Shown here piece after piece: positions 1,580 through 58,461 of a stretch of 64,000 bases of DNA. This stretch comes from Octopus vulgaris (lineage: Eukaryota): assembly GCA_951406725.2 (NCBI GenBank), contig OX597825.1, positions 57,908,001 to 57,972,000 of the forward strand. The letters are read 5' to 3'. Below the pieces are notes generated by a model. The model searched no databases, was not told where the DNA came from, and worked only from the letters and a program-made list of their open reading frames with translations. How positions within the stretch are numbered: the stretch's first letter is position 1; each line of letters opens with the position of its first letter. The position numbers and the translations under genes were made by a program.

Positions 1580-2065
<486 letters not shown>

Positions 2066-2094
2066 GAATATATCATCATTATCATAATCATCAT

Positions 2095-3469: not shown

Positions 3470-4281
3470 TTGTAGGCCCATCTCTTGCAATTTCGATCAA
3501 TTGTATCTTGTCCTCCCTCTTGTATAGAAGTGTGGCTACAATCCAGCCTACCTCTACTTTTGGGGGGACATTTTAAATTTTTATCTGGGACGTCCTACGT
3601 CCCAGATATAAAGGTAGAAATAAAATATTTCCACTTTGCAAGGTTCGAGTCGAGTACTCCCTTGCACGCTCTGTTGACTTGAACCTTGCTTTTATTGTGG
3701 CGAATTTACTGCCTCTGGTTATATACTTGATATATTTCATAGTCGCACCAAGACACTTTTCGATGGTACTTTCCTCCAGGTGTTCAAATCTTTTTTTTTT
3801 CTCTACATTGTATACTTTATAGACAATAGTTTTTTCTTTAATTCAATTTTTTATTTCGTTTCGTGGTGTTATCCTAGATTCACTGTCTTTGTCGGTGATC
3901 AATCCGTATTTCTTCCATTTTAATTTCAATGAGTTCGCGCTCGACGACGGCTGCAGCGAAATTCATTTTTGGACATTCTTCTATCGAAGACATTTTAACA
4001 AAAATGCTTCCGTGTAAACAGTGAAAATATTTTCAATTTCCCCAAACAGGGACACAATTCAATTTTTAAACAATAACCAAAGCTCCTTCTCCCAAAGGGG
4101 GAGGGTTACGGTTTACAATTATTTAACAAATGCAACACAACAACGCTTCCCTTACGAGGAACCAACAAACGTGATAACAATAGTTAAACAGAAATAATAA
4201 TTACAAACCTTACGGTAAACCAAAAAGCAGTACTCTGTTGAAACTATAGGCCTTTATGGATCAGAAATAAACCAGCAGTGG
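3470..4281 (-). pseudogene. Older Tx1/L1-family ORF1 and 5' region fragment
   Basis: Minus strand reads LEESTIEKCLGATMKYIKYITRGSKFATIKARFKSTERAREYSTRTLQSGNILFLPLYLGRRT, homologous to ORF1 at 8629-9165 (IEKCLKQIWQEITYSNRGKRFGTVEVRF...LLPSYRGRRT). Confidence 0.75.
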
Positions 4282-4555
4282 TACTCAGTAGAAGCATCTG
4301 ATTTTTTTATTACCCACAAGGGGCGAACATAGAGGGGACAATACAATCTGATATGGAGTCAGACTAACGAATGATAATTACACAAAATGATGAAATTTAA
4401 AAATTTACAAAGAATGACAATATAATTAAAACAAAAATCGAATGATCGAGCAGACCAGAAGACATTACGGATGGAGTGGGGGAGGGTTTAGCTCGGACCC
4501 CACGAGCCCCGCCTCGCCTCGCCACTGATACTTGGGTTTTCATCTTGTTTCACAT

Positions 4556-7500
4556 TTATGCGGCAGCATCCATACGCAACATCCGTGCTACATTCTTCCA
4601 TCGTTCTTTAAACACTTTCTTAGTCAGGCATTTTCTCTCCAGCCCTATTTTCCTTTTCAGATGGAAGATGAAGTAATTCATCAGTCCAGGGCCAGAGATG
4701 AAATTGCCTGACTCTAAACCTTTCAGCCTCGTCTTCCAAATCACCTCTCTCGCAATTGCTACTACAACGAGAAAACAATTCTTACCTTCTTTCGAGAGGA
4801 AATCCGGTGGGTCAATTTTTATTATAGACTCAGTCGACAGCTGTACTCTTCGTGTGCTTAACAACAGTTGTTCGGCATAAACCCACACCTCTGACACGTC
4901 CGAACATTGAACAATAGCATGCGGGACGGTTTCCCTATCCCGCTCGCATCTTGGACATGTCGGACTGCCTCGGCCACCGTGCCTTGCGAATTTGTCCCGA
5001 ACAGGTAAAGCTCCTCTGTAACACTGCCATGCCAGAGACTTCTGAAAGTTGTCCAGGGTCTTCGGCCCGAATGTACGTTGGAACAGACTGGCCAGCTGAT
5101 TATCATCGAGACCTAGGGTTTCCCTTAAAGTATCGTCACATTCCGCCTCTGCCAGCCCTCTATAAAAGAATGTGGTGGAACCCCCACTGCAGGCGTTGCC
5201 CGAGCGACGGAATAGCAGGAGTGCCTTGCGACACTCCGAATACCATGTGCCCAGTTTCGATCTTCGATTCAACCAGGTTTCCCATCCACCGAAACTAGTG
5301 AACTTGGGAAACATCAGTTTTGCCAGCGGAGACCACACCCGTTCACCATCCAGGTAGAGCCACAGATGCCTTAACTTCAGCGCATGTCTGCGCATCAACA
5401 GCCAAGGCATCCCTAGCTCACCCTTTAACGGTTGTTGACAGCAAGTAGAGCGTTTCACAAGCGGTTTCGAGCCCCTCCACAAAAAGTGAAAGAGCTGTCT
5501 TTCCAGCTTGATCAACCACGAATCAGGGCAAGGAACGATGGATAGGTGGTAGGTGATGACCGATGCGATGAACACATTGGCTACCGCCGCCCTTCCTTTC
5601 AGGATAGCCACCGCCAAGACCAGGTCTTGACTACTGCAGCCACCCTGCTCGATACCTCGGCCTAGTTTTTCTCTATTTGGAGGTCTGGTCCAAACCAAAC
5701 CCCTAGCAACTTCATCGGACCCTCCGTCCAACGTCCCACGAAACTGTCAGGAGGCATCGACTTGCCTCTCCAGGTGCCGAGCTGCAAGCCGACTGACTTT
5801 TCACGATTAACCTTTGCTCCTGCCACCGTCTCGTAAACCTCTATGGCCTTGCCTACCCTCTGTAGGTGATCCATTTTGGTTACGATGATGGCGATGTCAT
5901 CCGCGTATGCTGACACCGATTTTCCACCACCTGGCTGTCTCGGGATGCCGCTCAGTCTTCGCAGTAATGGCTCAAGAGCCATCACATACAAAAGCGGGGA
6001 GAGCGGACACCCTTGACGAACCGAGCGTTTGATGTTGAACGGCTTCGATAAGAAGCCGTTCACCCGAACTACCGAGTCGATGTTATCATAAATTTGAATA
6101 ATCCACCTGAGGAAGCCAAGGCCCAGGCCAAACTGTGCCAGAACGGACACCAGGTAGCGATGGCCGACCCTATCAAAAGCTTTAGATTGGTCTAAATGGA
6201 CCAGTGCCCCACCCTTGCCAGAGTCACTATTAAACCCCTCTATAGTGTACCGCATGAGATGGAGATTATCCTGAATGGATCTGCCGGGAACGACACGTGT
6301 CTGTGCCTCCCCGATCAGACCATCCGCGACACGCGCCAATCTTTTCGATAACACTTTGGCCAAAATCTTCACCTCTGTGTTAAGCAGAGTGATGGGCCAG
6401 AAATTATCAATACAATCCCCCTTGTTCGGGTCCTTTCTGACAAGCGTCACTACTCCCCGGCGCACAGACCTGGGAATAAACCCGTTCAGCTGCCAGTTCG
6501 CATAGACCTCCGCCAGTAGGTGCCCGAACAAGTCTGGCATACTCTTATATAACTCATAGGGTAGACCATCCAAACCCGGCGCCTTACCCGTGCTGCAGTC
6601 CGCCATCGCCTCAGCCACCTCCTCAGGCGTGATTGGCCCTTCACAGCTCTCCACGTCTCGCCCCAATAGGCGCGGCAGCCCGTCGAGGAGGTCCATAAAG
6701 TCCCTCTTACTATCCGGTCCGCCGCCCCCTCCGAAAAGCTGAGCGAAGTGCTCCTGAAAGGCCTGTCACACATCTCCTCGGGTTCGTTTATCAACTTACC
6801 TTGTTGGTTCGTCAAAGATCGAATTGTGGCATCATTACCACGTTGAGCTTCCCCCACTCGGGCCCATCTCGCGGCGTTGATTCCCTCACAACCCACTGCG
6901 CGGATCCTGGCCTCGAGGTGCTGGTTTAACGCCAGTCTCTTGGCCGCCACCTGAGCCAGTTTTCATGGCTTCCTCTAAATCCTTAACTAGGGTTGATCCC
7001 CTCCTAGCCTCTCTAGCCACTAATCCTATGCTATATCTAATTGACTCGAATTTAAGGGCTCGCTTGAGAGCATACCACCATTTGTTATTAATGATGGCAC
7101 CACATAGCGCCCTCTGAATCATAGTCCTAATCCGGTCTCTGTACTCCTTAATCGCCAAAAGGGACGTATTAAGTTTCCAATAACCGGAGCCTCTATTATA
7201 GACCTTATCTATGTCAAGCTTACAGGTGGCCATTTTATGATCACTGTAGCTGACCGGGTAAAACTGTGGACACTTAGCTATTTCTCTATCTACTTTTCTA
7301 ATTAGTATTCTATCTATGTAAGACCTGGAAGATCCGTCGCTACTTGACCATGTCCACAATGGAGCGTTCGGAAATTCCAACCTATAAGGATCTGCTAGCT
7401 CAAAACGTCTTAGCAGTTCCAGGAAGTCAGGGTTACCTTTTCTATCTTGACGCGAGCCAACACAATCTACATCCGCCTTGCAAATTGTGTTATAATCTCC

Positions 7501-7830
7501 TAGCACAACTAATGAATGTGAAGTACCAAGAAACTTCTCCAGCTCTCGAAAATACTCACTTTGCCCATTTTTTTTTGGGTGGGGGGTGTGCATAAATTGC
7601 AACCAGTTTGATAACTTTACCGTTACTGAACGTCAAATCCATGACGACCAGCCTACCTTCTGGATCTGAAAAAATTAACTTTTTCTCAAAAACCCGGTTT
7701 CTTCTTAATAGGACCAACACCCCACTCCCGCTGGCAGGACTGGCCGGAGAGAAAAAACTCTCGTAGCGGGAGCAGATCTCTTGGCCCCTCTAACCGGGTT
7801 TCTGTAGCAACAATGACATCCAAATACCTT
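4556..7830 (-). pseudogene. LINE ORF2: AP endonuclease, reverse transcriptase and C-terminal zinc knuckle (disrupted)
   Basis: APE motifs VLGDYN, SYIDRI, SDH. RT motifs KAPGLDG, LDQSKAFDRV, QGCPLSPLLY, YADD. Zinc knuckle CPRC...ETVPHAIVQC. Split over several frames. Confidence 0.9.
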
Positions 7831-7880
7831 CATATCAGTGGTCGGCTCGTTCTTCTTCATCTTTTTCTCTTTTGTCTTTT

Positions 7881-9165
7881 TCACGGGCCCATGGGGGGGG
7901 GGGAGTTACGCAGGCCCTCGAATATGTAAGGTGATATATCCATCCTCAGAGGGCCTACGTCATGGAAGAATTCGGACTTTATCCGTCCGTAATCCTTCTG
8001 GCCTAGTCTGTATATTATAAAATCTTTAGTTCTTTTCACTTTTCTTACCGTTGACATTGCTGCCAATCGGTTCACAAGTCTATTATTTGATGCCTTGATG
8101 GCCATAAATGTGCTGGTACTTTCCTTTCTCTTTTTCAGGTTAGATTTCTGTTTTTCGTTTTTTTTCCTTCCTTTTCTTGGTAATTGTTGACCACCCCTCC
8201 TCTTTTTCATTTTCCTCGCAACTTTCTTTTTCTGTTGTTTCTGTTGTTCTCTTCGGTGTTGCCTCAAGTGAGTTGTCTGGTGTTGTTTCTGGTGGTTTTT
8301 CCTCTGCTTCTGGTGGTGCTGTTTCTTGCGGTTTTGGCTGGCACTCTGCTCTTACGTGCCCCTTCCTGCCATAGTTGAAGCACCTTGGCTTCCTGCCCTC
8401 TACAAATACTATAACTTTCTCCTCCTCATTAATTTTTATGGTTTCTGGAATTTCTTCCAGCGTTTGAATTTCGGCTTGAATAGCCATTGATATGCACTGC
8501 CCCATCCAGTGCTCCTCTTCTTCTACTGTAGCCTGGAGAATGTTAATTTTTTCCTCCAGTCCTACCATGATTGCTGCCACCAGGCATGTGGCATCTACCT
8601 CAGGAGGCATATTATTAATCTTAATTTTTTAGGTCCTTCGTCCCCTGTAACTTGGGAGAAGGACTATCTCATCTGCTTTCAATACTTCCGTTGATAGTTT
8701 TTTTGCTACTTCCTCCGACCTGAATCTCACCTCTACTGTTCCAAATCTCTTTCCTCGATTTGAATATGTTATTTCTTGCCAGATTTGTTTTAGACATTTT
8801 TCTATCTTCTTTTCCTCCACTCTTTGTATTGACTTTTTTGTTACATTGTAAGTTTTATATATTATTCTCTTTTTGTCCACTTCCTCGGTTGTATTCACGT
8901 TGGGTGTTATTATTGATTCCGTGCCTTCTTTCTTTAGGTTTGTCATGTACCTTTCCAGGTTACTTTTTTCTGTGTTGATTTTTCTTTGCTTCTTACCAGC
9001 AACTTCAGAAAATTTATTTGCTGGGGCTTTGTTCGCTTTCGGCGACACTGCCGGTGAACTTTCTTCACCTGACTCAGGTGAGTATGGAGTAAGAGTTTCC
9101 ACTTCCACTAATAATGGCTTAAAAAAGCCTTTCGCAAAAATTTTGGCTTCACAAGCTTTTTGCAC
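7881..9165 (-). pseudogene. LINE ORF1 (gag-like, CCHC knuckle; disrupted)
   Basis: RCFNYGRKGHVRAEC is a degenerate CCHC knuckle. In-frame stop at 8629 and a basic C-terminus. Confidence 0.8.
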
Positions 9166-9926
9166 AGTTTTGTATATAGTAACACAATAATTCTCCCGCA
9201 GGGGGGGGGGGATTTTAACACGTAGCCTTCAAACAAAGGCAAATAACAATTTTTCAACAACAAAGAATCAACAAAATTCACAGTGCACAGTCACAATAAC
9301 AAGTCAATGTACCGGTATTAAAGAATCCAACTAACAAAGTAACATACTCAGTAGAAGCATCTTTCGAGAAATCAGACATTACATACAGCCAAACTTCATA
9401 TAGATACTTAATGCTAGCTAATTAGCAAATAATCTTATGTAAAAGCCGTGCACACCTCCATCTGGACTATTCCATTTCTGCACTTAAATTTTATTTTTTA
9501 TTTATTCCTATTCATGTGAAACCACTGATTCAAGTTCAAGTCATTGATGCAATTTTATACCAATTGCTATTTTTACTTTTGTTATGTTACGATTATATTA
9601 TACTTTAGTTTGATTTTAATTATTACTTACTACATATAATTCAATTGTTATTATTATTTTTATTGTTAAAGTGAAAGTATCTGACATAAAATAGAGAAAT
9701 GTTTTTGTTTCACTTTTAACACGTAATACTGAAATAGTGGAGAAGATATGATATTGCTATTGGCTCGCTCTATGTAAGAAGTTGAAGATTTTTTTGCCCA
9801 CGAAACTACATGGACCCTAAGTAAGGCATGTGTAAAATTTGAATGAAGTTGGTTGTGTAGTTCTCAAGTTTTAGGGAAACACACAGACAGACAGACACAC
9901 ACACATTCTCAGTTTTATATATAGAG

Positions 9927-10910
9927 AGAATTCCCAATCCTGTAAATTATATAAAAAAAGACCTTATAAATTGTCAAAAAAGTTTTTTTATATAAATTAT
10001 AAACACTAAAAAAGTATATAAAGGATATATAAACATCAAAAGTAAAATAGGAAAAAATATAAAATTTTTTCACAAAATAAAATCATTTGTAATTACAAAT
10101 ATAAAATATATTATATTCTACAGTAAGCTTTATGAAAAGAAGTTCTAAACCACCAAGCCCTTTATAGGCTGTAGGAGCTATACACATGTATAAGAGAGTA
10201 TATATCATAAATACATCAACATTAATATAGAATATAAAAATTTCATTTTATAATAAATGTTATAAAATATTTTTTACAGAATGATATAAAAGGTATAAAA
10301 GAGATATAAATAAGGAAACAGAATTATAAATAAAATAAAATAAAATGAAATAATGATGATTTTATAAATTATATTGGTATATCAAAAAGAATTCCTAGAC
10401 TTGTTATTATCATTAATAGAATATAAAATAAAATATATGTAGTAAATAATAAATAGTAAATAAATTTACTTTTCCAAATGGGTTTATAACATCTTTCTAA
10501 AATACATCAAAGACATGATCTAAGTAGAATAATAGTAGATTTTAGGGGATATCCTTTACGCTTAGGGGAGGTGTAAAATTTAGTAATTTATTGCAAAATT
10601 TATGTTATACTATGAGGGAAGTGATTCCCAATACCGAAGGGGTAAATATATAATACAATTATTGAAATTTTATAGATCAAAGGGATTAAGGGTTATTAGA
10701 AAGCATTATTGAATAAATTTCAAGATAATTGAGAGTAGGCTATGAATGATATGATACTCTGTATAACTCCTACTACCAAAGTGCAGTATGGTATACTTAT
10801 TATTATCTGCTTCTAAAGTATTTAAATGTACGGGCAACCCTATGAACACATAACACTCTAAGATCTAATTTATTATTAATTAGGCTTTGTGTATCTCTAT
10901 ATTTAAATAT
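9927..10910 (+). mobile_element. Highly degenerate AT-rich Penelope-like RT remnant (continues from 2640-3279; paralog 30200-33009)
   Basis: Decayed motifs SPL*A, *YKRYKRDI (compare WYKRYVDDI), EFLDLLL and FRGYPL occur in the order expected for a Penelope-like RT. Confidence 0.4.
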
Positions 10911-11966
10911 ATATATATATTAGGGGGAGAGTTCACGAAAAAACAAAAGACGAAGACAGATGGTGTACAAAACAAACAGATGTATTAGTATAACGCTCAT
11001 ATATATGTGTGTGTGTATGTTTATGTATGTTTGTATGTATGCAATGAGTTTCTTTCAGTTTCTGTCTATGAAATCCACTCACAAGGCTTTGGTAGGTTTG
11101 AGGCTATAGTAGGGGACTCTTGCCCAACGTGCCACACAGTGGGATTGAACCCAGAACTACATGGTTGGAAAACAATCTTCTTCTTGTTTCATTTCTGCTA
11201 ATTAATTGCACTTTTATGAATGGGTTCTAATTTAAGCCAAGGCCTGCAATTTTGTGAGAAAAAGCTGCATTGTAGGATGTTCTCATTACCACCATTTATA
11301 AAAGTAATACAGGTTTGACATGCGGTGTCTAGGCTGTCTTGGCTGCATGATGGATAGTTGGGCAAAGTTTTGGAGGAATGAAGGATCATGTTATTTGCAT
11401 AAGGGTGAGTATTGTTGGATGAGGCAGCAAGAAGAAGAAGAGGAACAATTTTAAAACTTTATTGAATTCTAAAACAAACTTAAGACTTTATCATTAAATT
11501 TTTTCATCATTATCATCAGCATAATCATGAGAAATACATTTATCATTAGCATATTCATTATTTGGATTGTCATTATCTGCAGCATATTCATCATCAGCAT
11601 AATTATTAGCCTCATAATTATCTTTAGGAATATTCTTATTATTCATATTTATTATCAGTATAATCATCATTAATTGTTGTGATTAGAGAAGTATTAAACT
11701 AATTGTTTATGTCGTCTAGTTAGATGGGCCATGTTTCCATGTTCAAATCCTAGTAAAGGACAAATTGGAACATGAATTATTAATGATATTGGACCAGTTC
11801 AATTTAGTGAATTGAAAAAAGCTCTCTCTCACTCCATGGACCTAGCAAAGTAAAATATATGACACTATCACCATTCTGGTTATTGTTGCTATTGTAGTGA
11901 CTTCTGAAAATCATTAAATGCTAACTGGAAGTTAACCAAAATGTTGAAAATTTCTCCAAGCTGAGT

Positions 11967-12116
11967 CTACGGACATTCTGGTGGTATTTGGTTCTTTTGC
12001 TGTGAACATTCGCGGACAATACATTCAGCAACATCTTTCATGTCTTCATCATTTTTCACAGAAGTAAACAACAGGCCTCTGTCCATTCGAGTCATTATAA
12101 CATCACCTTTGAAGTC
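11967..12116 (-). CDS. ureG: UreG-like coding exon 6 (DFKGD...PPECP*)
   Basis: Acceptor tttctttaatgaacag|GAC; TAG stop at 11969-11967. Confidence 0.85.
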   Translation of the reverse strand, partial: DFKGDVIMTRMDRGLLFTSVKNDEDMKDVAECIVRECSQQKNQIPPECP

Positions 12117-13607
12117 CTGTTCATTAAAGAAAAAGACAAACAATAATAATCCTTTCTAATATAGCCACAAGGCCTGAAACTTTTTGTGGGGGTGGGGGCG
12201 GGAGGCAAGTTGATTACATTGACCTCAGTGCTCAACTGGTACTTCTTTCATTGACCCTGAAAGGATGAAAGACAAAGTCAACCTCAGTGGTATTTGAACT
12301 CAGAAGGCAAAGAGGCAAACAATATGTCACTAAACCATTTATCCAACACGCTGTGATTCTGCCTACCAACCACCTTAATAATGATATTAATAATAATACT
12401 AATATACAGACAGGTAGGTAAGCAACCAGATTGATTAAGTGGCAGACTGATTTGCTTGGTTGTTTAGGAGACCTATTGAGTCAAGTATGTCAACATCAAC
12501 ATCAAAATAAAAATCAAATGGAAATTGTACTTATGATACCTGTGCTGGTGGCAGGTAAAAAGCACCATCCGAACATGGCTGATGCCAGCACCGCCTGACT
12601 GGCATTCATGTCAGTGACACGTAAAAAGCACCAACTGATTGTGGCCGTTTGCCAGCCTCCTCTGGCTCCTGTGCTGGTGGCACGTAAAAAGCACCCACTA
12701 CACTCACGGAGTGGTTGGCATTAGGAAGGGCATCCAACTGTAGAAACACTGCCAGATCAAACTGGAGCCTGGCACAGCCTTCTGGCTTCCCAGACCCTGG
12801 TCAAACCGTCCAACCCATGCTAGCATGGAAAATGGACGTTAAAGGATGACGATGAAGATGATGGATGGTTGTTTAAATACTATGACAAAATCTCAATGAA
12901 AGCATCTTAAAGTTTCATACACCTACCTCCATATCAATATCCAGTGCTTTTTCCAAATCTATTTTGTTGACTACAAGTAACTCGCAGTAATCATTACCTG
13001 CTATCCGTTTCTTGATAACGTTCTTGCCACCTAGAAAACAGAAATTATTGTAATTATTAACATTATTATTGAGTGAGAGAGCCCAACATACCCATCATGA
13101 CTACCCATCTGATAAGGGTACACCAGGCACATGCATCACAACCATATGTGCATGACACAATGACCTCAAATCAAGATGAACAGCCCAAAACCTTGCAGGT
13201 GGGGGTCCAGTTAGAATTTTCTTCATGTCAAGTAGCCCATCCTGCTCAAAATGTCCCTGAATAAGGGTTATTTTAGGATAATGAATGAAACATCCATGTT
13301 ACCAGTGGTGAATTATTCAAACCCTATAAAATTGCTCCCCCACTACTTCTGCTTATGATAAGAGATGCACATATCATCAGCCACTAAGGGACATACTCAA
13401 CTGGTTAAGGTGAAGCAACTAATAAGCAAATCTGTGGTATTGAACAGAATATTTGCTGTAGCCCATCTTTTACACCAAGACAAAACAATGTACATGATTG
13501 CACTTCCAATCAGTTAAGATCAAAAGCCTTGAAAGCCACTGTCCAGTACTGCATCAGGGCATTATTATCAATTCCAGATCTTGTACATATAGTAGAAAGG
13601 ATTATTA

Positions 13608-13638
<31 letters not shown>

Positions 13639-13707
13639 GTTTTGGTGAGGTACCATGCAACTGAAAACCCCAATGTGTTGTTGTTGTTGTTGTGGTTGTT
13701 GTTGTTA

Positions 13708-13753
<46 letters not shown>

Positions 13754-16062
13754 GGCAGTGAGTAGGCAGAATCATTAGCATCCCAGGCATCCCCCAGTAT
13801 GCTAATGATTCTGCCAGCTCACTGCCTTAATAACAACAACAACAACTTCTACCAAAGGCATAAGTCCTGAAATTTGAGGGAAGAGACAAGTCAATTAAAT
13901 TGACCCCCAGTGTTTCACTGGTACTTGATTTATTGACCCCCGAAAGGATGAAGAGCAAAGTCGACCTTGGTAGAATTTGAACTCAGAATGTAGCGGCAGA
14001 CAAAATACCTATTTCTTTACTGCTCACAAGGGGCTACACACAGGGGACAAACAAGGATAGACAAATGGATTAAGTCGATTATATTGACCCCAGTGCGTAA
14101 CTGGTACTTATTTAATTGACCCCAAAAGGATGAAAAGCAAAGTTGACCTCGACGGAATTTGAACTCAGAATGCAGCGGCAGACGAAATACCGCTAAGCAT
14201 TTCGCCCAGTGTGCTAACGACTCTGCCAGCTCACCACCTTCCTCATATTAATCATAATGGATACAAAGATGTCTCATGTTTTCAAACATGGATTTAAGGA
14301 TCAATTGTAATAAATATTTACAACATAAATAAATAATTGATAAAAACCAAAAGCAAAAATTGTGTGAGAAGCTGTAAGGGAATCAAACCTGCAATGTCAA
14401 TGACTAAAATGGTATAATCCACCAAATCTCTGTCAAAATGTGCTGCAAGACAATCCCCAGCAGATTCTAATAGAATTATTTCAGGTTGAAAGAGTTTGGT
14501 CAATTCTTTGATTTCTTTCAGATTTACATCAAGATTCTATATATATATAAAAAAAAAAGAAAATACAGAAAAAACATAAACAATGTGTGAGAATTTGAAA
14601 GTATGAGAATGATGATGATGATGATGATGATGATGACGGTGGTGGTAGTGGTGGTTATGATGATGATGATGCCAATGAAGATGATGATGGTGATAGCAAT
14701 GAGATATACAATGCAAAAATTCTTTAAACAAATATATTTTATAAAGAAATCATTTACATTTACTAATTAATCAAATCTATCTACACAGTGAACTTGTATC
14801 CATATCAGCTCGAAAAACTACTAAATTATATCGTTTTCTTTTAATCTTTTTTACTTGTTTCAGTCACTGGACTGTGGTCATGCTGGAGCACCACTTTGAA
14901 GGATTTTAGTCAAATGAATCGCCACCAATACTTATTTTTAAGCTTGGTATGTATATCATCAATTTATTTTTGCCAAGCAGCTAAGTTATGGGGACATAAA
15001 CAAACCTTCACCAGTTGTCAGACAGTAGTGGGGGATAAACACACACACATATGTACATATGTACATATATTATATAATACACACGCACACACACATACAC
15101 ATACATGCATATATATATAAAAGATGAAGGTGGAAATAGCACAGAAGTAAATCAAAGACATTTCAATTTAGAAAGAATTGAATAAAATGATTTAAAAACG
15201 ATATAAAGAAAGTATAAAATATTACCAGTTTCATTGATGAATGTCATTCTATCAAATATTCATAAAAATTTATAAAAAACTTGAGGTAAAATAGTTTATC
15301 TCCAGGATTTTTTTTATTGAAGTCTTCTTTAAATATAGTCTGGTACAGAGTTCAATGTGTTAGAGAGAAAGAGAAGGGGTGGAGTTGTCTATTGTCTAAA
15401 AAAATCTCATTATTGTAGTTTTGATGTTTTTGTATCTATTTTAAATATATATATATATAAGATGGGCTTCTTACAGTTTCCGTTGGAAAGCAAACTTCTT
15501 ATATATATATATATATATACAACAAGCTCCTTTTAGTTTCTATCTACCAAACCCACTCATAAGGATTTGGTCGGCCTGGGATTATAACAGAGGACATTTA
15601 TTCAAGGTTCATGCAGCAGAACTAAACCCAGAATCCTAAAGTTGAGAATTGAATCTTTACAACAGTCATGCCTGCACTTGTATAACAGATAAAAACTGAA
15701 AATATTTTTAAATAGACACAAAAACATATCATATGATAATGATAATAATAATAATAATAATAATAATTCTTTCTGCTATAGTACTTAACTGGTGCTTATT
15801 TCATCAACCTTGAAAGGATTGGAGGCAAAGTTGACCTTGGCAAATTTTAAAGGTTGTGACAGGCAAAATACCACAAAGCATTTCGTTCAGCATGCTAACG
15901 ATTCTGCCTGCTCGCCACCTTATTATTATAATAATAATAATAATAAGGCCTGATCGCTTAGCCAGCGGGGTGGCGTCATTTGAAGGCTAAAACAATGTGA
16001 AGCGCATTGTGACCAGCGATGTGTAGTAACATCTGATAACCTGGTCGGTCACAATGATGATG

Positions 16063-16103
<41 letters not shown>

Positions 16104-16109
16104 TAATAA

Positions 16110-16143
<34 letters not shown>

Positions 16144-18226
16144 CCTCAATGTCTTAGCAATAATCATAATATTGCTTTCAAATTTTAGGCACAAGGCCAG
16201 CCAGTTCATGGAAGGAGATAAGTCAATAACATCAGCCCAGTGTTGCACAAAAATATGAAATCAGTTGATTTAAAAGGGAAATGGACAGAAAAATGGAACA
16301 CAATAAGATTAAGCACACAAAATAACAAAATCCCGTAATTCAATAGAAATTATTCACACATCTAATCAACCCTAAAAGATGAAAAGCAAAATCAAGTCCA
16401 GCAGAACTGGAACTCAGAACATAAAGACAGACAAAATGCTGCCAAATATTTTGCCACCCTAATAATAGGATAGAAAATAAAAGTAAAAAAAAACACAACA
16501 TTACTTTATTCATGACTTCCAATGGACATCCTTCTGTTACGACAGAACGAACTTTCTCTTTTGGAATAGCATTTTGTTGAATCAAGATGTCAGCATCAAT
16601 ACTGAAGAATAAATGTGTATATTTATACAATAATAACAATAATAATAATAATAATGAAAATAATAACGAAAATTTTAGAAAATAAAGATAAGAAATAAGT
16701 GGAAATTTTACCGGTGAGTGTATTAAATAATAAGGCACTATAAGAGAATGACTCTCCCCAGACACAACAGAATATGCTTCAACACACGAACTCATATAAA
16801 GAATCTTGCAAACCAAATCCCAAAACAAAAAATAATAATGAAATTATTGTGTATAGTGCTTAGGTGCACTACATCTCATCAATGTACAATACATAGAATT
16901 ATGTACAAAAGTCAGGAAAGTGAAGTGTATGAGACATGATATATGTGTTCATGTGTATGAGGCGGGATATTAGGTGTAGTGTTGGCAAATTTCATGAAGC
17001 ACGGAGGTTTTAAAGGATGCAATGTCTTGGCAACTAACAACTGATACAGGTAGTTTGTCCCATGCTTCAGTAACTCTGAGTGTGGAAAAATGTTTCGAAA
17101 AGTCATGGGAGCTGTGCTATTTTCTGACTTGGTAGGCAAGGTCACATATGTTAGACACATGGAACTCAAAAAGGTGCTCCAGGGGGCTGTTGGAACGAGG
17201 GTTAATATTTTTGTGGATGTTTGCCAAGTCAGTTGCCAGACATCAGAGCTTCAATGTATCTATGCCCAGGGAAGCAAGGCATTCAGATGATGTCAATAGG
17301 CAATCTACATCTATTAAAAACACAGACTGCTTTGATGTGTTAATAATTCTAAAGTAATTTTAAAGTAATCTTTCTAAAACACTACTCACGTGCTGTAGAA
17401 ATCATTGGTTACAACACAGATATTGCGATCTTTCAGAATCTTACACACAGCAAGGATAATGGCGGTTTTCCCTGAGCCAACTGGACCATGAATGCCCACT
17501 GTAAATGCTCGCTGAAATAGAACATTAGTTATTTTATACAATTTTGCTTTACTTTTTTGTTTGGCGAAAATATCATTTACAGTTACTATGGTTTCAGGTG
17601 GGGGATAATGAAGAAGACTATAGATTTATAGTTGCTATGGTTTCAGGCAGTGGGGTAATGAGGAGGACCACAGATTTATAGTTGTCATTGTTTCAGGTGG
17701 TGGAATAGTGAAGGGGACCAGTGTCACCTTAAGATATAGGGACACTGGCAACTGTTTGGTAGTCCCAAACAGATCTAGAGATCCACTGCTAATCTGTATT
17801 ATGGTTGTATATGTATGAACCCCAAAGGATTACTTTACCTGAGTGGCTTATAATGCTGTTATGATGGCCCTGGGAGAGACTTATGATTATCTTTGCTCTA
17901 ATTTCACTTAGCGCAACAGTGAGGAAAACTACCAACCAAACCATTGTGAGATCAAGCCTTGCAGTTACATTGCAGTTGTTGTTGTTGCTGAGATAATTGT
18001 TACTAAATCACAAGGATGTATAGATACAATGTTCAGTTGTGGTTTGTATAGGCACAGGAGTGGCTGTGTGGTAAGTAGCTTGCTTACCAACGACATGGTT
18101 CCAGTTCAGTCCCACTGGCTGACACCTTGGGCAAGTGTCTTCTACTATAGCCTCGGGCTGACCAAAGCCTTGTGAGTGGATTTGGTTGACGGAAACTGAA
18201 AGAAGCCTGTTGTATATATGTATATG

Positions 18227-18257
<31 letters not shown>

Positions 18258-19636
18258 TTGTGTGTCTGTGTTTGTCCCCCCACCATCACTTGACAACCGA
18301 TGCTGGTGTGTCTACATTCCCATAACTTAACGGTTTGGCAAAAGAGACCAATAGAATAAGTACTAGGCTTACAAAGAATAAGTCCTGGGGTCGATTTGCT
18401 CGACTAAAGGTGGTGCTCCAGCATGGCCACAGTCAAATGACTGAAACAAGTAAAAGAGTAAAAGAGTATATATCATGAAGGATTTGAGAGGTGCCAATCT
18501 CACTGGATGGGCTTGCAAAAAAAAAAAGAAAAGGAAAATCAAATAAATTCATTTATTTGGAAAAGAAAGTTATTTAAATCTACTTAAAACTCCTCTATGA
18601 ATTAAAGGTTGTTGACTCAGGTCACCACCACCACCATCAAATGTTTCTCAGTATTCTGTATTTTATCTTATTTCACTAATAAATATCTTATTGGTGTGTT
18701 GCTGGTAGAATTTCCTGTGATGTGTGGAATTAAAATTCAGAAATGCCAAACATTGAAACACTTGTAGTAAAGATTGTTTGCTAACATAACATGGCAGTCC
18801 TGGTTTAGGACTAATGTTGCTGTAATTTAGCCCCAGGAGACATCTTGTCTCCAGCTGGCTATACAACACGGTCTGTGTCCTTATATTTTCAAACAAGATC
18901 ACAGATCATGTCGTATACCCAGCTGGAGATGATATCTCCTGGGGCTAAATTACAGCAACATTAGTCCTAATATCGTATAGCCAGCTGGAGATGATGTCTC
19001 CTGGGCCTAAATTATAGCAACATTAGTCCTAATTAGTGCCATGTTGTGTTGGCAAACAATCTTTACTACAAAGTACTGTTGCTGAATATTTCATGTTGAT
19101 AATGATAAACATAGCAATAGATTATACAACACTTTCTCAACCCAAATTATCTGAAGTTCAGTTGACTGATAAGTAATTAACATTTAGATCATCAATAAAT
19201 GGCATAACACCGCTGACAGAAACTCTAATTTAATAATCACCTGTATAAATGTTAGGTTGTTTTCTCTAATCATGCTTTACATCATGTATATATATGCGTA
19301 TAATAAGGGATGACCACTAAGTGGACATCCAATATGCTAGAAGAAGATCACCTACGATGTAACCACAAAGAAAAGAATGTTCTCTAGAGAAATTCAGCAA
19401 ACACCAGAACATAAGCTGGTAAGACAGATGTTCTAGTGTTTGCTGAATTTCTTTAGAGAACATTCTTTTCTTTGTGGTTAGATCGTAGGTGATCTTCTAG
19501 TATATTGGATGTCCACTTAATGGTCATCTCTTATTATACACAGGTATTACAATTTTTCTGAATTTTCAGATTTTTCTTTATGCTAAGTCTACTGGTTTTA
19601 AATTGATGTTAATTAAATTAATATTCAATTTATCAC

Positions 19637-19684
<48 letters not shown>

Positions 19685-22600
19685 GCAGCATGGCAGGTGT
19701 TTATAAGCCATTTTAGAAACACACAAAAACCGTTAGATTCACTTCAACATTTAAATTTAATTTGTCAAAATATTTTTGTCGCTTTGAGACCGCAACCTGT
19801 TCACTGACAAAACTTCGTGCTACACTTGGTGACTTGGTGAGAGAGAGAGTGGGGGAAGGAAAGGGGCATAACTCTAGCTTGGTACCCCACCACCTGTTTT
19901 GAAAGTTTTTGATGGAGCAGACTGCAATTATTTTGAAAACATTTAGTAAAATAATAACATATATTTATTGAAAATACATAAATGAGACATTTATTTTATC
20001 AAATTTTATTTTAAGGTAATATTTTTCTTTTCAAAATTAGTTTCAATTTCATCATTTTGTATAAGCACCAAGACGTTTGATACAAATTCAATTTTAATTA
20101 TTATATGTATCATATTTCCAGATGGGGGCTGCACAGAAAGAAGTTTGCTTCCCAACCACATGGTTCCGGCTTTCAATCCCAGCATGCGCACCTTGGGCAT
20201 GTGTCTTCTGCTATAGCCTCAGGCCAACCAAGGACTTATGAGTGAATTTGGTAGAAGAAAACTTGTCTTCACATTGCATGATAATCATAAATAAATGTTA
20301 CTGTTGTACAAGCAGTGTCACTCATTTCCAATCTTCTTTGAAAACATGTCTCGTCATGAGGGAAAATTACCTTACTCTAAAATAGATGTGGGTTGGTGAC
20401 AGGAAAAGCTTTTGGTCACGCTTCAACAAATTCCACCTGTCCCATGCAGGTATGGAAAAATGAACATTGAAACAACAACGATGAGTTTCCAGTAATTTCT
20501 GCTGGACTGTATCGTTTGTTCATCATTAAAATTGCAGCCAAATTTGTCTTTATATAGCATGGATCATGTCCATTAAGTTCACCATCATCAATTCACTGTT
20601 TTCCAATAAAATAGTTTTTAGCTATTAATGGTGAGATACTTTGGGTATATTTTCTCAGTGAACTTTCCTCATGGTGAACTTTCTTCACAGTGAATTGATG
20701 GCAGTGAGCTTACCTGTAATCAGTACTGGTATATAGTTAAATTGTGGAAGCACATGGCCTAGTGGTTAGAACAGCGGACTCATGGTCGAGGGATTGCAGG
20801 TTTGAATCTCAGACCGGGTGATATGTGTTTTTATGAATGAAACACTTAAGCTCCATGCGGCTCCGGCAGAAGGTAATGGCAAACTTCTGCTGACTCTTTC
20901 GCCACAACTTTCTCCCACTCTTTCCTCATGCAACTTGCAGATCACCTGCGATGGACCAGTGTCCCATCCAGGTGAGGAACCTATATGCTAAGGAAACCGT
21001 CCCTTATAAGTCAGGCATGGCTCAAGAAGGAACAAACAAATAGTTAAACTGGGTTTATAGAATTTAGCATCATAGATGTATTTTATTCCATACTTTAAAG
21101 AAAAGTGATGGAAATTTGCAACATTCACAAGAGTTGCTCTTTGTGGAATCTCTGTCAGTTGCTTATCAAGAAAGAGCTGTGATTAGTTGTGTTTGAAAGT
21201 TTACTGACCAATAAAGTAAGAGATTATCAATTTTTATTCTGTACTAGAATGTTACCAGTCATATGACTGGTAATATTCTGTTCTAGAATGTTACCAGTCA
21301 TATGACTGGTACATTTGAAAATATATTTTTGCTAACATGGGTATTATCTTTTATATTATATCTTTCTTCTTGTTTCAGTGGCCACACTGGGGCAATGCAC
21401 TGAAGAATTTTAGTCTAACAAATTGACCCTAGTACTTATAATTAATTATTTTTTTAAGTTCGGTACTCATTCTATTGGTCTCTTATTAAACTGTTAAGTT
21501 ACAGGGATGTAAACACAACATCACCAGTTGTCAGTGGTGGTTGAGGATAAACTCACACATACACATACAATGGCCTTTTAGTTTCCATCTACTGAATCTA
21601 CTCACAAACCTTTAGTCGGCCTGAGGCTATAGCAGAAGACATTTGCCCAACTGCCATGCTGTGGAGCTGAACCTGGAACCATCTGATTGTGAAGCAATCT
21701 TCTTACCATACAGCCATGCCTGGAAATATGGCACACATACAATAATTAAAATTTAACCTTTATCAAATTCCTTGGTGCTTATGTAAAAGGAGGAAATGAA
21801 GACTAATTTTCAAAAGGAAAATATTACCTTAAAATAAAATGAAAATTAACGATCTCACTAGTGTGATGATGATTTATAACCATCATGTGATGTCTAAAGA
21901 AGAATACACATAAACTCACACACAAATATGTACACATATATATCTGTTACTTTTACTTGCTTCAGTCATTAGACTGTGGCTATGCTGGGGTACCATCTTG
22001 AAGGACTTTTGTTAGTTAAATGAATCAAACCTAGTACTTATAATTTTTTAAGCCTGGTGATACTTATTCAATTGTTCTCTTTTGCCAAACCGCTAAATTA
22101 CGGGGATGTAAATGCACCAACACTGGTTGCCAAGTGATAGTGGAGGACAAAGAGACACAAAAACACACACGCACACATCATCATCATCATCATCATTTAA
22201 CGTCCGCTTTCCATGCTAGCATGGGTTGGACGATTTTACTGAGGACTGGCAAACCAGATGGCTGCACCAGACTCCAATCTGATCTGGCAGAGTTTCTACA
22301 GCTGGATGCCCTTCCTAATACCAAACACTCTGAGAGTGTAGTGGGTGCTTTTATGTGCCACCGGCATGAGGATCAGTCAGGCGGTACTAGCAACGGCCAT
22401 GTTCAAATGGTGCTTTTTACATGCCACCTGCACAGGAGCCAGTCCAGCAGTAAGGCGACGCTGGTAACGATCACGCTCAAATGGTGCTTTTTACGTGCCA
22501 CCTACACAGGAGCCAGTCCAGCAGCACTGGCAACGACCTCACTCAAATATTTTTTCTCGTGACACCAGCACAAGTGCCAGTAAGGTGACGCTGGTAACTA

Positions 22601-23446
22601 TCACACTTGAATGGTGCTTTTTATGTGTCACTGGCATGGAAGCCAGTTAGCTGCTCTGGCAACGATCATGCGTGGATGGTGCTCTTAGCGCTCCACAAGC
22701 ACGGATACCATATATGTTGGGCTTCTTTCAGTTTCTGTCTACCAAATACACTCACAAGGCTTTGGTCAGCCCAATGCTATAGTAGAAGACACTTGCCCAA
22801 GGTACCATGCAGTGGGACTGAACCCAGAACCATGTGGTTGGGAAGCAAGTTTCTTATCACACAACCACACCTACACAGACTTCTTTCAAGTTTCATCTAT
22901 CAAATCCACTTACAAGACATAAGTTGATTTGGGGCTATAATAGAAGATATCTGCCAAAGGTGCTGTGCAGTGGGTCTGAAGCCAAGACCACAGAGTTGTG
23001 AAAGCAAAAACTTCTTAACCACACTGTCACTCCTGCATCTATTATTTGTTTCAGTCATTTGACTGCAGCCATGCTGGGGCACTGCCTTGAAGAATTTTTT
23101 AGTCAAATGAATTACCCCTAATACGTATTTTTCTTTTAAGCCTGGTGTTTATTCAATCAGTCACTTTTGCTCAACCACTAAGTTATGGGGACAGAAACAC
23201 ACCGGCACCAGTTGTCAAACAGTGGTGAGGGACAAACACAAACACAAAGATGCACACACATATAAACAGACAAGATGCTTGCCCAAGGTGCCTTGCAGTG
23301 GGACTGAACCTGCAGAAGAGTGACAAATAGAAATAGAGAAATAGTAATGTAAAAAATATCAAGAACATTTTGAATTGTGTTAGGATCCTTACTTCATTCC
23401 AGTTGGTTCGGTAGAAATTCTGATCCGGTATTCTTCTGCCTGCCAT
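11967..23446 (-). CDS. ureG: Urease accessory protein UreG-like G3E GTPase, 6 coding exons, 224 aa: complement join(23393-23446,17390-17511,16505-16601,14389-14536,12927-13030,11967-12116)
   Basis: All introns are GT-AG, phases are compatible (0,2,0,1,0), and the 675-nt frame is open. Protein: [224 protein letters not shown]. Colinear with eukaryotic UreG (ERAFTVGIGGPVG.GKT, VTND, ESGGDNLAA.F.RELADY.I..IDV.GG, LLV.NK.DL). Confidence 0.92.
12490..12865 (+). mobile_element. SINE with RTE-like 3' tail (inverted copy at 22185-22710)
   Basis: Internal GGCACGTAAAAAGCACC repeats; tail GGAAGGGCATCC...AACCCATGCTAGCATGGAAAATGGACGTTAAA(GAT)n. Confidence 0.6.
12927..13030 (-). CDS. ureG: UreG-like coding exon 5 (G4 motif NKID)
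   Basis: ttttctag|GT...GAG|gtaggt; reads [35 protein letters not shown]. Confidence 0.9.
13070..13560 (+). repeat. ~500-bp interspersed repeat embedded in (ATT)n (other copies 50048-50552, 50614-51160, partial 54445-54612)
   Basis: Shared termini GAGTGAGAGAGC...GCATCAGGGC, abutting ATT microsatellites. Confidence 0.8.
13850..14240 (-). mobile_element. Nested Meta-domain-type tRNA SINEs
   Basis: Reverse complement of the SINE at 23753-23973 (CCCCGAAAGGATGAAAGGCAAAGTCGACC...GAATTTGAACTC), present twice. Confidence 0.7.
14389..14536 (-). CDS. ureG: UreG-like coding exon 4 (G3 region ESAGD)
   Basis: tatag|AAT...GCAG|gtttga; reads NLDVNL...[28 protein letters not shown]. Confidence 0.92.
16505..16601 (-). 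CDS. ureG: UreG-like coding exon 3 (CPH-equivalent motif = CPL)
   Basis: ttcttcag|T...AAA|gtaatg; reads [32 protein letters not shown]. Confidence 0.92.
16700..17330 (-). mobile_element. CR1/L2-type LINE 3' fragment
   Basis: Reads [32 protein letters not shown], resembling the CR1 ORF2 C-terminal motif (R.NFFS.RV...WN.LP..VV...S...FK). Confidence 0.6.
17390..17511 (-). CDS. ureG: UreG-like coding exon 2 (Walker A GPVGSGKT)
   Basis: ctatttcag|CGA...AC|gtgagt; reads [40 protein letters not shown]. Confidence 0.95.
18050..18470 (+). mobile_element. CORE-type tRNA SINE (intronic)
   Basis: Full head GGCACAGGAGTGGCTGTGTGGTAAG...GTTCAGTCCC, CORE box, and tail GAAACAAGTAAAAGAGTAAAAGAG. Confidence 0.85.
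18805..19032. repeat. Inverted repeat (~60-bp arm) with tandemly duplicated right arm
   Basis: TTAGGACTAATGTTGCTGTAATTTAGCCCCAGGAGA...CCAGCTGG is reverse-complemented at 18919-18970 and again at 18981-19032. Confidence 0.8.
19298..19539. repeat. Long near-perfect hairpin (~113-bp arms, 15-nt loop)
   Basis: 19298-19412 is the reverse complement of 19428-19539. Confidence 0.9.
23393..23446 (-). CDS. ureG: UreG-like first coding exon (exon spans 23393-23469)
   Basis: ctcttttttag|ACC...ATG GCA GGC...GAA|gtaagg. RTNWNE joins RAFTVG, as in the eukaryotic UreG R.F.ERAFT segment. Confidence 0.85.
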
Positions 23447-23752
23447 TATTATATAAATGAATAACAGGTCTAAAAAAGAGACATAAAATGTCATATGAGA
23501 AAGAGAGAGAGAGAGAGAGAGAGAGATAATGTCAACCTGTTTGCAGCCATGTTTGTTGAAATACACTATTTTTATTTCAATTAACTTTGAAAATGATGAA
23601 GAATATAGTAACATAGCTTTGTCATTAATAAGCTGGTGTTTGGAACATAAATTAACAGGAAATTTTGATGGAAGTTTTAATTTAGATTATTTTAATACCA
23701 GAAATTTGTGTCATAAAACGAAGGGTGATCTATAGCAGGTATAGCAGCTTGG

Positions 23753-23973
23753 GCTGGCAGAATCGTTAGCACGCCGGCGAAATGCTTAGCGGTATTTCAT
23801 CTGCTGTTACGTTCTGGGTTCAAATTCCGCTGAGGTCAGCTTTGCCTTTCATCCTTTCGGGGTCGATAATTTAAGTATCAGTTGCGCACTGGGGTCGATA
23901 TAATCGACTTAATCCATTTGTCAGTCCTTGTTTGTCCCCTCTGTGTTTATCCCCTTGTGGTTAGTAAAGAAAT
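23753..23973 (+). mobile_element. Meta-domain-type tRNA SINE with a Tx1-like 3' end and 16-bp TSD
   Basis: TSD AGGTATAGCAGCTTGG at 23737-23752 and 23974-23989; B-box GGTTCAAATTCC; GCCTTTCATCCTTTCGGGGTCGATAA core. Confidence 0.85.
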
Positions 23974-24599
23974 AGGTATAGCAGCTTGGTATCACAAGTA
24001 TTAGGTACTAAACTGGCTGCACATCAAGAGTTTCGTTTTATAATCAAAATGTTTCAAGTTTCATCTCCTGACATTACACATTGGGGCACAAACATAGATT
24101 AAGGAAAGCCTTGAGTGAAATTAAATTGCATGGTCATCATCATCATCATTTTTTTCATGTCTGTCTTCCATACTGGCATGGGTTGGATGGTTTGACAAAA
24201 TTCAAAGAGCCAGAGACTGTTAACCTCCAATGTCTATTTTTTAGGCCCAGTTTCTACACAGGGATCCCCTTCCTAGTACCATTGACTTTTACATTTTTTT
24301 TCTCAGAAAACATACATTTTTTTTTGTTCACTTGGCATTATAAAATTAGAACCTTTTGGTAGCCTTCTTGATGCCAACCTGCTTCAGAACACACTTGGTT
24401 CTATGATACAAATTTCATATTAAAACCTTCCATTAAAATTCTTTTCTAATTTATGCTTCAACCTTCAGCTTAAAAACGACAATTCTATTTTATTAAATTC
24501 TTCAATATTTTTAGAGGTGAATGAAACAAAGGCAGTGTATTTTGACAGAAATATGGTACAAAAATAAAAAAAATCTACTATATTAATATATTTGCATAT

Positions 24600-26150
24600 T
24601 CGTTCCGTTAATCATGGTACCCAAATCTATTTTTGCATTTTCCCGGATTTTAATTTTCATTAGCAATCCCGCAGTTATAAGTTAGTTATGACCGAAGATC
24701 GCTATTCATAATTTCTGTTGTTGAAAACATCGGAATCCGAGGAATACCGCCCGCCTTTACTGCCCTTTTTTGTGAGCGAGTGGAGGTGCCTATTCGATAA
24801 AATTATCATGGAATGATTATAATTTATCGCTATAGGTAAAACTACGAATGATTTATTATTAAAATACGAAGACAGAAGAATGTAATCGAAAACTGAATTT
24901 TTGAATTGCAAGCAATGTGTAATAGATTTCAAAAAACAAAAAAATCGTATAAGTATGTTATTTTGATGATAACTGATTCAGCTTGGCGTGACATTTCTGT
25001 TTTTTAACTCTCCTTCAATTTTTTCTATTATGTTGATGCATCATTGGAATCAACAAGTACTGAATACTGTGGCAGTTGCTGGGTAGACATACCAACAATA
25101 CGCACACTTTATATTTTATCGCGTCATCTCCCTGGTGATTATTACCAAATTGCTTCGCCCTTCATGCGAAAGATAGCCCAATACTTGAATACAAAAAAAT
25201 AAAAGAAACCCAGCGAATATCAATTTAATATTAGTAGTCGCTTCGAGCAATTTGTCGGTTAACTAGATCCTTGAACTACTACACTGTGCTATTAGATACT
25301 TTCTGAAATACACTTTCTAACAAAAAAAAAATGCACTTTCTAACAAAAAAGAATTATTGTAGAAAAGGCAGGATGTTTTTTTAATTGCTTATAATAATAG
25401 GACAGTTCGATCGGGGTGGAGTTAGGACTAAATAACTACAGATTGTTCGGATAATGCCGTGTATGTTACATACAACTACTAAAGACAAAAAAAAAGTTAA
25501 CGATCATTCGAATTAATGATTATCGAATTTAACAAGAAGGTATTTTAAGGATTTACTGTAATTTGACGGTTTTTATGTTTATATTTTAATTACTCTACAC
25601 TGAAAAAATATTAATACGAAATTCCTTTGGTCGGTATGCATTGGCCAATAATTAAGAGACCGATGCTAAACAGGAATCAGAAAACAACGTAAGCGATGCA
25701 TTAAAGTACAATTCTTTGATAGATTCCAATAAATGTTCGAGTTACTTCATTAATGACATATCTGTAACCATAAAACTTACCTTTAAAATTAGAAACACAA
25801 CTTCCCGTTATATTTGACTAACTATAGCAGCTCGGAACAGCAATAAGTTTGCGAATATAATTGAAAAAAAAAAGTCTTTCTGGACTTTGATCAAACAATT
25901 CGGATAATAAATTATAATGAAAATTAAAAAAGATCGGATAAAGAAAAGTTATTGGTATTTTTCTGTTAAAAAATATTAACATAGATTTGTTTTTAGTCAA
26001 CGGAATATATTTTAAGGGATCAGTAGCAGTCTTTATTTAAACAATTATTAAGCCCTTGCCACTAGCTGGTGCTGATCGGTGTGTGTGTGGGCGTCTATTT
26101 ATAGCATTTTTCCCGTCCTACTTTTTTAATTCTTCTCATTGGCAGACAAG
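24600..26150 (-). promoter_or_regulatory. Probable promoter and 5'-UTR exon region of the ureG-like gene (candidate donor AAAG|gtaagt at 25781/25780)
   Basis: Repeat-free, CpG-retaining segment upstream of the first coding exon, which starts at a splice acceptor and so needs an upstream UTR exon. A consensus donor site is present. Confidence 0.45.
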
Positions 26151-26649: not shown

Positions 26650-27806
26650 TTGCATCAACTTGCTATAAAAGCAGGTAGTAATTTTACCTTGCACTTGTTC
26701 TTAGTGCAAGTTTTGAAGAGTGCAGTTCGATTTTAACATTTATTTTTTCAAAGCTATAATGGAAGTGACAAAAGACCATATTTTGCTTGATGGGTTAAAT
26801 GGAGGTAACAACGCGACAGAAAGTGCGGAGAATATTAATGTAGTATATGGGGATCGGACAATAAGCGTAAGCCAGGGTCAATGGTGGTTCCAGAAATTCA
26901 GAGCTGGAAACTACAGCGTAGAAGACGAGCCTCGGCCTGGAAGATCTGTAGTGTTCAATGAGGACATTCTGTAAACCTTAGTGGAACAAAATCCCATCGT
27001 AACTGTTGAGGAGCTAGCAGAGAAGCTTGGATTTGGTCATTCAACCATTCCTCGACACTTGCATGCCATCGGAAAAGTCAGTAAATCGGTTCAATGGGTT
27101 CCTCATGTACTTTCCTAGTCTAATCACGCGCAGAGAGTGAATGTGTGCTCTTCTTTACTGTTGCATCTCATGAATGGACCTTTTTTGGACCAATCCCTGG
27201 TGATGAGAAATGGGTTCTCTATAAAAATGTGTAGCACCGAAGACAGTAGGTAGGGAAAGGAGAAACACAGGTACCCCAGGCTAAAGAAGTTCTTCACCCA
27301 CGTATGTTGTTATCTGTTTAGTGGAATATGAAAGATTTAGTCCACTTTGAACTCTTAAACCAAAACCAAACGAAAATAAAGAAGATATACAGTGAGCAGT
27401 TTAAGCGGCTTAAGTCAGCACTAGAAAGGAAACGACCGTCTTTGGTTTCAAGCCGAAAGGTGTTCTTCCATCAGGGTAATTCTCGGTCACATACAGCGAG
27501 GAAGGTATTCCAAAGGCTGGAACAGTTTGAATGGGAAGCAATGCCTCGCCCACCATATTCACCAGACATTACCTCATCTGATTATCATTTATTCCACAGT
27601 CTTCAAAATCATTTAGACGGAAAAAATATGAATTCTGTAGATGAGGTCAGAACAGTACTGAAGGAGTGAATTTTGGAAGAGAGGGCTTGCAAGTCAACCA
27701 GATAGATTGAAGATAATTGTAGAAAATAAAGGAGGGTATACTTTAGATTAATATAAAACAACCGCATTATTTAAAACAACCGCATTATTTATGGGAAGAC
27801 CTAGTA
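26650..27806 (+). mobile_element. Near-complete inactivated mariner (DD34D) transposon
   Basis: HTH ORF 26720-26974. ORF 27328-27669 contains FFHQGNSRSH...PPYSPDITSSDYHLF. 3' TIR-like end CCGCATTATTTATGGGAAGACCTAGTA. Confidence 0.88.
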
Positions 27807-37165: not shown

Positions 37166-55667
<18,502 letters not shown>

Positions 55668-58460: not shown

Positions 58461-58461
58461 C

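Follow-up and report, generated by a model that had tools for sequence, protein, structure and literature searches.

UreG is treated as a chaperone with a single client, in which the Cys-Pro-His (CPH) motif and the switch II motif ESGGDNL are invariant; in the excerpted text of Fong et al. (PMC3792862) ESGGDNL is described as totally invariant, the motif histidine is hydrogen bonded to Asn103, and the H68A form of Helicobacter pylori UreG is monomeric with its nickel binding much reduced. In HypB the metal site comprises one cysteine between the G2 and G3 motifs and one cysteine within G3 (PMC11672702 section 5.1.2). Canonical UreG is named in bivalves, gastropods, a chiton, annelids, chelicerates, a tardigrade, echinoderms, hemichordates, lancelet and Nematostella, and the excerpted part of PMC2667541, from 2009, notes urease in Aplysia and sea urchin; UreG in an invertebrate is ordinary and not in itself new. 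The subject here is a UreG-like gene on the minus strand, at 11967-23446, of a 64,000-nucleotide stretch of the Octopus vulgaris genome (the window), which is part of contig C12. A preliminary description of this locus had named the gene UreG, which is real here, and had considered UreG patchy in invertebrates, which overstates the surprise given the many phyla just listed and the urease of Aplysia and sea urchin. The feature it overlooked is that Cys-Pro-His in this gene reads Cys-Pro-Leu.

The explanation we favour, with a probability of roughly 0.45, is that this spliced gene of the UreG family derives from an ordinary animal UreG, was kept after the apparent loss of urease, and now encodes a thiolate metal-handling protein switched by guanosine triphosphate (GTP), with Cys84 and Cys120 as its ligands and a new partner. 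Four cephalopod-type sequences were compared with 117 non-cephalopod UreGs, in which 106 positions reach 90% invariance or more. Of these positions 47 are retained in all four, among them the P-loop, Asp55 (H. pylori Asp37), Asp61 (Asp43), Cys84-Pro85, Glu115, Asp119, Lys148 (Lys131) and NKxD; at 17 the four share one residue that differs from that of the other UreGs, at 33 they have changed and vary, and 9 are retained in the window protein but not in all four; among the four themselves 115 of 218 columns are invariant. The histidine of the nickel motif (GCPH) is found in all 117 other UreGs and in none of the nine cephalopod-type proteins that cover the site, CPH having become CPL in octopus and CPM or CPA in its orthologs, and among 159 proteins with both motifs the CPH histidine is present in 150 and missing in 9. 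Switch II reads ESAGDCL in 4/4 cephalopod-type sequences (Gly to Ala117, Asn to Cys120), the residue after ESxGD being Asn in 117/117 of the others and Cys in all four of these. As the motif histidine is bonded to Asn103 in the solved UreG structure, the lost histidine and the gained cysteine are neighbours. The six residues that follow the lost histidine are rewritten, as is most of the loop 143-157. A His-rich leader is carried by 21 of 25 named animal UreGs and is missing in the octopus protein, a weaker sign since four animal models also lack it; a search of the window with 17 animal UreG N-termini gave only chance-level matches to a remnant of this leader. The 47 kept and 17 fixed new positions, the invariant columns and a long stem in the trees described below would all be consistent with selection for a new state.

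On the favoured explanation the gene would descend from animal UreG, urease would have been lost and the GTPase gene kept. The octopus protein would be expected to bind and hydrolyse GTP, and would no longer be able to load nickel into urease; in a GTP-dependent dimer two Cys84 and two Cys120 may meet in a HypB-like, all-cysteine site, such a site would probably suit Zn(II) or some other thiophilic ion better than square-planar Ni(II), and hydrolysis would then release the ion to a new client, the protein acting as either chaperone or sensor. The same residues may be read without a metal, as those of a metal-independent orphan GTPase or GTP switch whose remodelled surface binds new protein partners and whose two cysteines are structural or redox-active, for example in a disulfide. 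This is a serious possibility, if a lesser one; it accords with G1-G4 being intact while the metal histidine, block 86-92 and loop 143-157 are rewritten, with most of the 17 constant-but-different sites being non-ligand residues and with the missing leader, but it gives no reason for Cys84-Pro85 to be invariant or for the sole new invariant cysteine to sit at the residue contacting the lost histidine, and the related G3E proteins covered in review are metal or cofactor chaperones.

Further cysteines are seen in these proteins. A terminal cysteine (PPECP or PPQCP) is common to three of the four compared sequences and is noted in orthologs P0001, P0002 and P0122, which also have two cysteines near the N-terminus that are missing in the octopus protein; it is possible that these represent extra metal or redox sites.

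Genome searches covered the 2.80-Gb O. vulgaris assembly of 227 contigs, and it was this one assembly that was searched for urease and its partners. Two urease alpha profiles (TIGR01792 and PF00449), urease gamma and urease beta profiles, a coral urease query in a stricter first look and a 161-residue urease active-site piece that shares 82% identity with coral urease all gave no match in it; nor did the UreF and UreD profiles, blanks that count for less than those for urease since divergent animal exons are poorly tested by such profiles. As a positive control the profile of another amidohydrolase gave 8 exon matches that make up one gene, and the divergent UreG itself was recovered by the same type of search. 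Urease is conserved, with 71-82% identity between bacteria and corals, and it is therefore unlikely to have diverged beyond detection. No cephalopod is named among the best 120 of 2004 long ureases, a list that cannot show absence and in which the names are mostly those of plants, algae and oomycetes together with two corals, further corals being found in another listing. Urease has apparently been lost from the octopus genome and UreG retained.

The preliminary description had offered two outcomes, a cephalopod urease/nickel system or an orphan UreG with a new role; the first is not supported, there being no urease, UreD or UreF match in the assembly and the nickel histidine being lost, and the second is the reading that the evidence favours. 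That the protein is still a urease chaperone, with urease, UreD and UreF either absent from the assembly or diverged too far to be found, and with a GTPase that changed along with them, is very improbable. Assemblies can miss genes, urease is known from another mollusc (Aplysia, in the excerpt of PMC2667541), and fold and family are still those of UreG; against this stand six blank urease searches beside a positive control, the conservation of urease just described, and the observation, in the excerpt of PMC3792862, that loss of the CPH histidine abolishes nickel-charged dimers in bacterial UreG.

The nearest protein is that of Argonauta hians, with 80% identity over the full length and matching all six exons, and a Sepia pharaonis 'ureG' and Logan proteins are 62-64% identical to the octopus protein; the database labels of these orthologs are 'uncharacterized' or plain 'ureG'. 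The mean identity of the cephalopod type to animal UreGs is 42%, compared with 72% among those animal UreGs themselves. All the G3E GTPase motifs are present, with the G1 P-loop at residues 27-34, G2 Asp55, an ExxG-type G3 from Glu115 to Gly118 and the G4 NKxD at 162-165. In profile searches, where the scores are those of the orthologs' proteins and not of the joined window protein, UreG (TIGR00101) was the top family for three orthologs with 137.9, 152.4 and 153.6 bits, below the curated cut-off of 204.2, HypB (TIGR00073) scored 46.4-57.7 bits for the same three against a cut-off of 121.2, and the Argonauta ortholog scored 18.3 bits with CobW TIGR02475 (cut-off 332.1) and 72.7 bits with Pfam PF02492, above its cut-off of 20.7. 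A sequence search of the PDB placed the UreGs of H. pylori (4HI0) and Klebsiella pneumoniae (5XKT) on top, the ESM Atlas also gave UreG first, and the AlphaFold model of the Sepia ortholog, which has a G3E fold and a mean predicted local distance difference test score (pLDDT) of 82, found 5xkt and 4hi0 as its best folds (template modelling score 0.77-0.78 by query) with HypB after UreG.

That this is a genuine nuclear gene of UreG ancestry is supported by its splicing, by the ranking of TIGR00101 ahead of HypB and CobW, by the UreG folds and by placement with animal UreGs; the preliminary assignment to UreG rather than HypB or CobW is borne out by the same profile, PDB and fold rankings. Its motifs make it a predicted G3E GTPase; it descends from UreG, and it should be called UreG-derived because CPH and ESGGDNL are altered, the partners are without a match in the assembly and the profile scores lie below the cut-off. 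A literature search, with subscription journals mostly outside its coverage, found nothing on cephalopod or orphan animal UreG. A second or canonical UreG locus was also looked for and none was found in the assembly, two of 60 matches being exons of this gene and the other 58 being weak (E 5e-4 or worse), most of them to the query's low-complexity His-rich leader.

Two other identities were considered and rejected. A bacterial gene or contamination is ruled out by the introns, the spliced contigs (in four of four runs), the orthologs and the location on a large contig, as had been argued in the preliminary description, where the ERAFT/RAFTVG motif was also taken to be eukaryote-type; that motif occurs in bacterial UreGs too (Algisphaera, Cytophaga, Anaeromyxobacter) and is no such mark. 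Identity as CobW/ZNG1 or HypB is ruled out by the profile and fold rankings, and a separate CobW-family exon was found in the same assembly at C8:71114425-71114517, which is probably that of the ZNG1/CBWD gene.

In the UreG trees, from all of which HypB was absent, the octopus, Argonauta and Sepia proteins and one Logan protein form a clade with 100/100 support. In a 41-row tree this clade falls within animal UreGs (support 100/99). Its stem measures 1.96 changes per site and the tips of other animals 0.14-0.39, and a 53-row mixture-model tree agrees with placement among animal UreGs. When five long-branch proteins that lack CPH were added, the other animals formed the sister group of the cephalopod clade (92/91), and a grouping of that clade with three of those proteins was not rejected (approximately unbiased test, p-AU 0.28). 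This grouping, and the existence of other UreG-like proteins without CPH (P0400, P0412, P0415, P0452), could point to an ancient horizontal transfer of a UreG paralog that had already diverged and lacked CPH, with introns gained later. We regard that as the remotest of the explanations given here, since the clade nests with animal UreGs both without and with the long branches, animal-type residues are found in the N-terminal and beta-2 regions, and the G3 cysteine is in none of the other proteins without CPH. Furthermore, among 1.84 billion cluster representatives searched with a profile of three orthologs, a single cluster was of cephalopod type (434.8 bits, the next match having 202.2), and among the best 150 matches the ESAGDC form was confined to that cluster; a search for prokaryotic relatives, a weak test as it used two signature patterns only, gave 66 pattern matches of which none was confirmed.

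Most of these proteins without CPH (P0400, P0412, P0415, P0452, P0441) lie on long branches apart from the cephalopod clade. UreG paralogs that are degenerate or repurposed may thus have appeared more than once, and some of these proteins could be sequencing or assembly errors.

The gene has six coding exons that join into an open reading frame of 675 nucleotides, encoding 224 residues and a stop with no internal stops. The preliminary description of an intact, intron-containing gene was exact in its start and end coordinates, its six GT-AG exons, its length and every motif it listed. On the minus strand the parts are as follows:
23446-23393, minus strand: coding exon 1, residues 1-18, a short N-terminus without a His-rich leader
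17511-17390, minus strand: coding exon 2, residues 19-59, with an intact G1 P-loop (27-34) and G2 Asp55
16601-16505, minus strand: coding exon 3, residues 59-91, with Cys84-Pro85 retained, the CPH histidine replaced by Leu86 and the conserved block 86-92 substituted
14536-14389, minus strand: coding exon 4, residues 92-141, G3/switch II, with Glu115 and Asp119 retained, Gly to Ala117 and Asn to Cys120; joined to exon 5 in contigs of four runs
13030-12927, minus strand: coding exon 5, residues 141-175, with loop 143-157 remodelled (Lys148 and Gly152 retained) and the G4 NKxD (162-165) intact
12116-11967, minus strand: coding exon 6, residues 176-224 and the TAG stop
11966-11048, minus strand: 3' untranslated region, with contig cover from exon 6 to 11500 in one record and to 11048 through overlapping records

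Introns 1-5, within 12117-23392, are 5881, 788, 1968, 1358 and 810 nucleotides long, all five are GT-AG, and they contain high-copy host repeats and microsatellites, with very high multi-copy depth in introns 4 and 5. Candidate hexamer poly(A) signals lie at 11653 and 11463 in the 3' untranslated region, whose mapped 3' end is putative. Upstream of the ATG, on the minus strand within 23447-25300, there is a candidate splice acceptor 24 nucleotides away and a stretch richer in CG dinucleotides at about 1.2-1.9 kb; a non-coding first exon is likely, given this acceptor and contigs that are longer than the coding part.

Evidence of transcription comes from 24 listed runs, none of which is recorded as RNA, so that RNA status is a tool's guess ('RNA?'). 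Part of the stretch of exon 6 and the 3' untranslated region is present in 20 of the 24, and 14 of those 20 are guessed to be RNA. Contigs of four runs from four studies were aligned to 10500-15000, which covers the junctions of introns 4 and 5, and in each run a single contig runs through exons 4 to 6 and leaves out precisely introns 4 and 5 (1358 and 810 nucleotides), with spliceosomal ends. These contigs extend 370, 407, 300 and 36 nucleotides past the aligned part of exon 4, where 279 nucleotides would suffice to reach the ATG, which fits exons 1-3 without showing them, and the sole coding difference listed among the contigs is synonymous. With no second UreG locus in the genome, the contigs are best read as spliced transcripts; of the five junctions in the preliminary description two are covered in this way, and in runs guessed to be RNA both are spliced exactly as drawn.

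Transcription of this kind would also be seen in a slowly decaying relic, under relaxed selection since urease loss and with no important function. The low identity to animal UreGs, the 33 conserved positions that have become variable and the very long stem would suit such a relic, which is nonetheless unlikely; the frame is open in both octopod and cuttlefish lineages at 62-80% identity, the GTPase motifs are complete, 17 new residues are fixed, and the spliced contigs come from four studies with a coding difference that is silent. The octopod-decapodiform split is also old, at ~270 million years ago.

A number of observations weigh against the explanation we favour. Glu42, which with Arg130 has a role in dimer salt bridges according to the excerpted text of a preprint (bioRxiv 10.64898/2025.12.08.692910), is lost in three of the four sequences, and Arg130 varies. 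The confidence of the AlphaFold model is lowest at both cysteine loops, with a pLDDT of 52 for block 81-90 and below 50 for residues 119-121, and in the HMMER alignment Cys120 lies two positions before the G3 cysteine of HypB, so that the likeness is one of neighbourhood and not of position. Those of the 106 conserved positions that are merely variable fit relaxed selection too, absence of urease from one assembly is not proof of its loss, and tree support fell when the long branches were added, with the alternative grouping not rejected. A repurposed, non-urease GTPase under selection is highly probable, and the version with a metal site takes a little over half of that likelihood. The most likely history is one of vertical inheritance, followed by urease loss, a spell of rapid change on the coleoid stem and then renewed constraint. 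It is a more tentative proposal that coleoids as a group lost urease and converted the nickel chaperone to a metallochaperone with a convergent, all-cysteine, HypB-like site, loading zinc or another thiophilic metal into a cephalopod metalloprotein, which would be a third animal G3E activity besides those of ZNG1 and MMAA.

A lineage with an intact, transcribed UreG after apparent loss of its client, and with a paired loss of histidine and gain of cysteine, offers a natural experiment in how a G3E GTPase changes metal and partner. The protein is small and soluble and its two named residues, Cys84 and Cys120, are open to testing; the case points either to a metalloprotein that is a new client in cephalopods or to a further role of UreG, one masked by the urease pathway in other eukaryotes. 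A database label such as 'ureG [Sepia pharaonis]' is not evidence of urease or of nickel use in cephalopods.

The surroundings of the gene in the window are as follows:
4556-9228, minus strand: broken retrotransposon without long terminal repeats, its endonuclease, reverse transcriptase and zf-RVT parts lying in different frames, with ORF1-like frames upstream
31252-32127, plus strand: Mariner-type transposase remnants, the frame at 31603-32127 matching Transposase_1, with similar fragments near 27322-27669 and 34623-35060
45023-45122: run of 100 N outside the gene, from masking or a gap in the assembly
56778-61018: two degenerate frames that face in opposite directions and by eye look like a Penelope-type element with reverse transcriptase and GIY-YIG parts; Pfam gave no match to the two frames that were scanned

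In comparison with known systems, the closest named relatives outside the cephalopods are the animal proteins labelled 'urease accessory protein UreG-like' (Pecten, Liolophura, Mytilus, Nematostella, Branchiostoma and others), which are 41-46% identical, fall in the same tree clade and share the same G1-G4 motifs; they hold CPH, ESGGDN and the DKxPRKGGPG loop, and most have a His-rich leader, whereas the octopus protein does not and its genome has no urease match. Bacterial UreGs (H. pylori 4HI0, K. pneumoniae 5XKT) are the top PDB sequence matches, and the top folds for the model of the Sepia ortholog, but their Cys2-His2 nickel site cannot form as such in the cephalopod type, where the equivalent of His68 is Leu or Met, Asn103 is replaced by Cys and Glu42 is lost in three of the four. 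HypB, the G3E GTPase of [NiFe]-hydrogenase, resembles the octopus protein in having a cysteine between G2 and G3 and another in G3, to which Cys84 and Cys120, invariant in the four sequences, may correspond; it differs in its score (46 bits against 138 for UreG), in the offset of its G3 cysteine by two positions and in retaining a Cys-His pair, and the likeness would be convergent. Finally, whilst the octopus protein is a single G-domain of 224 residues without the C-terminal domain of the ZNG1/CobW (COG0523) zinc metallochaperones, whose family has its separate locus on C8, these provide the precedent of an animal G3E GTPase that handles a metal other than nickel.

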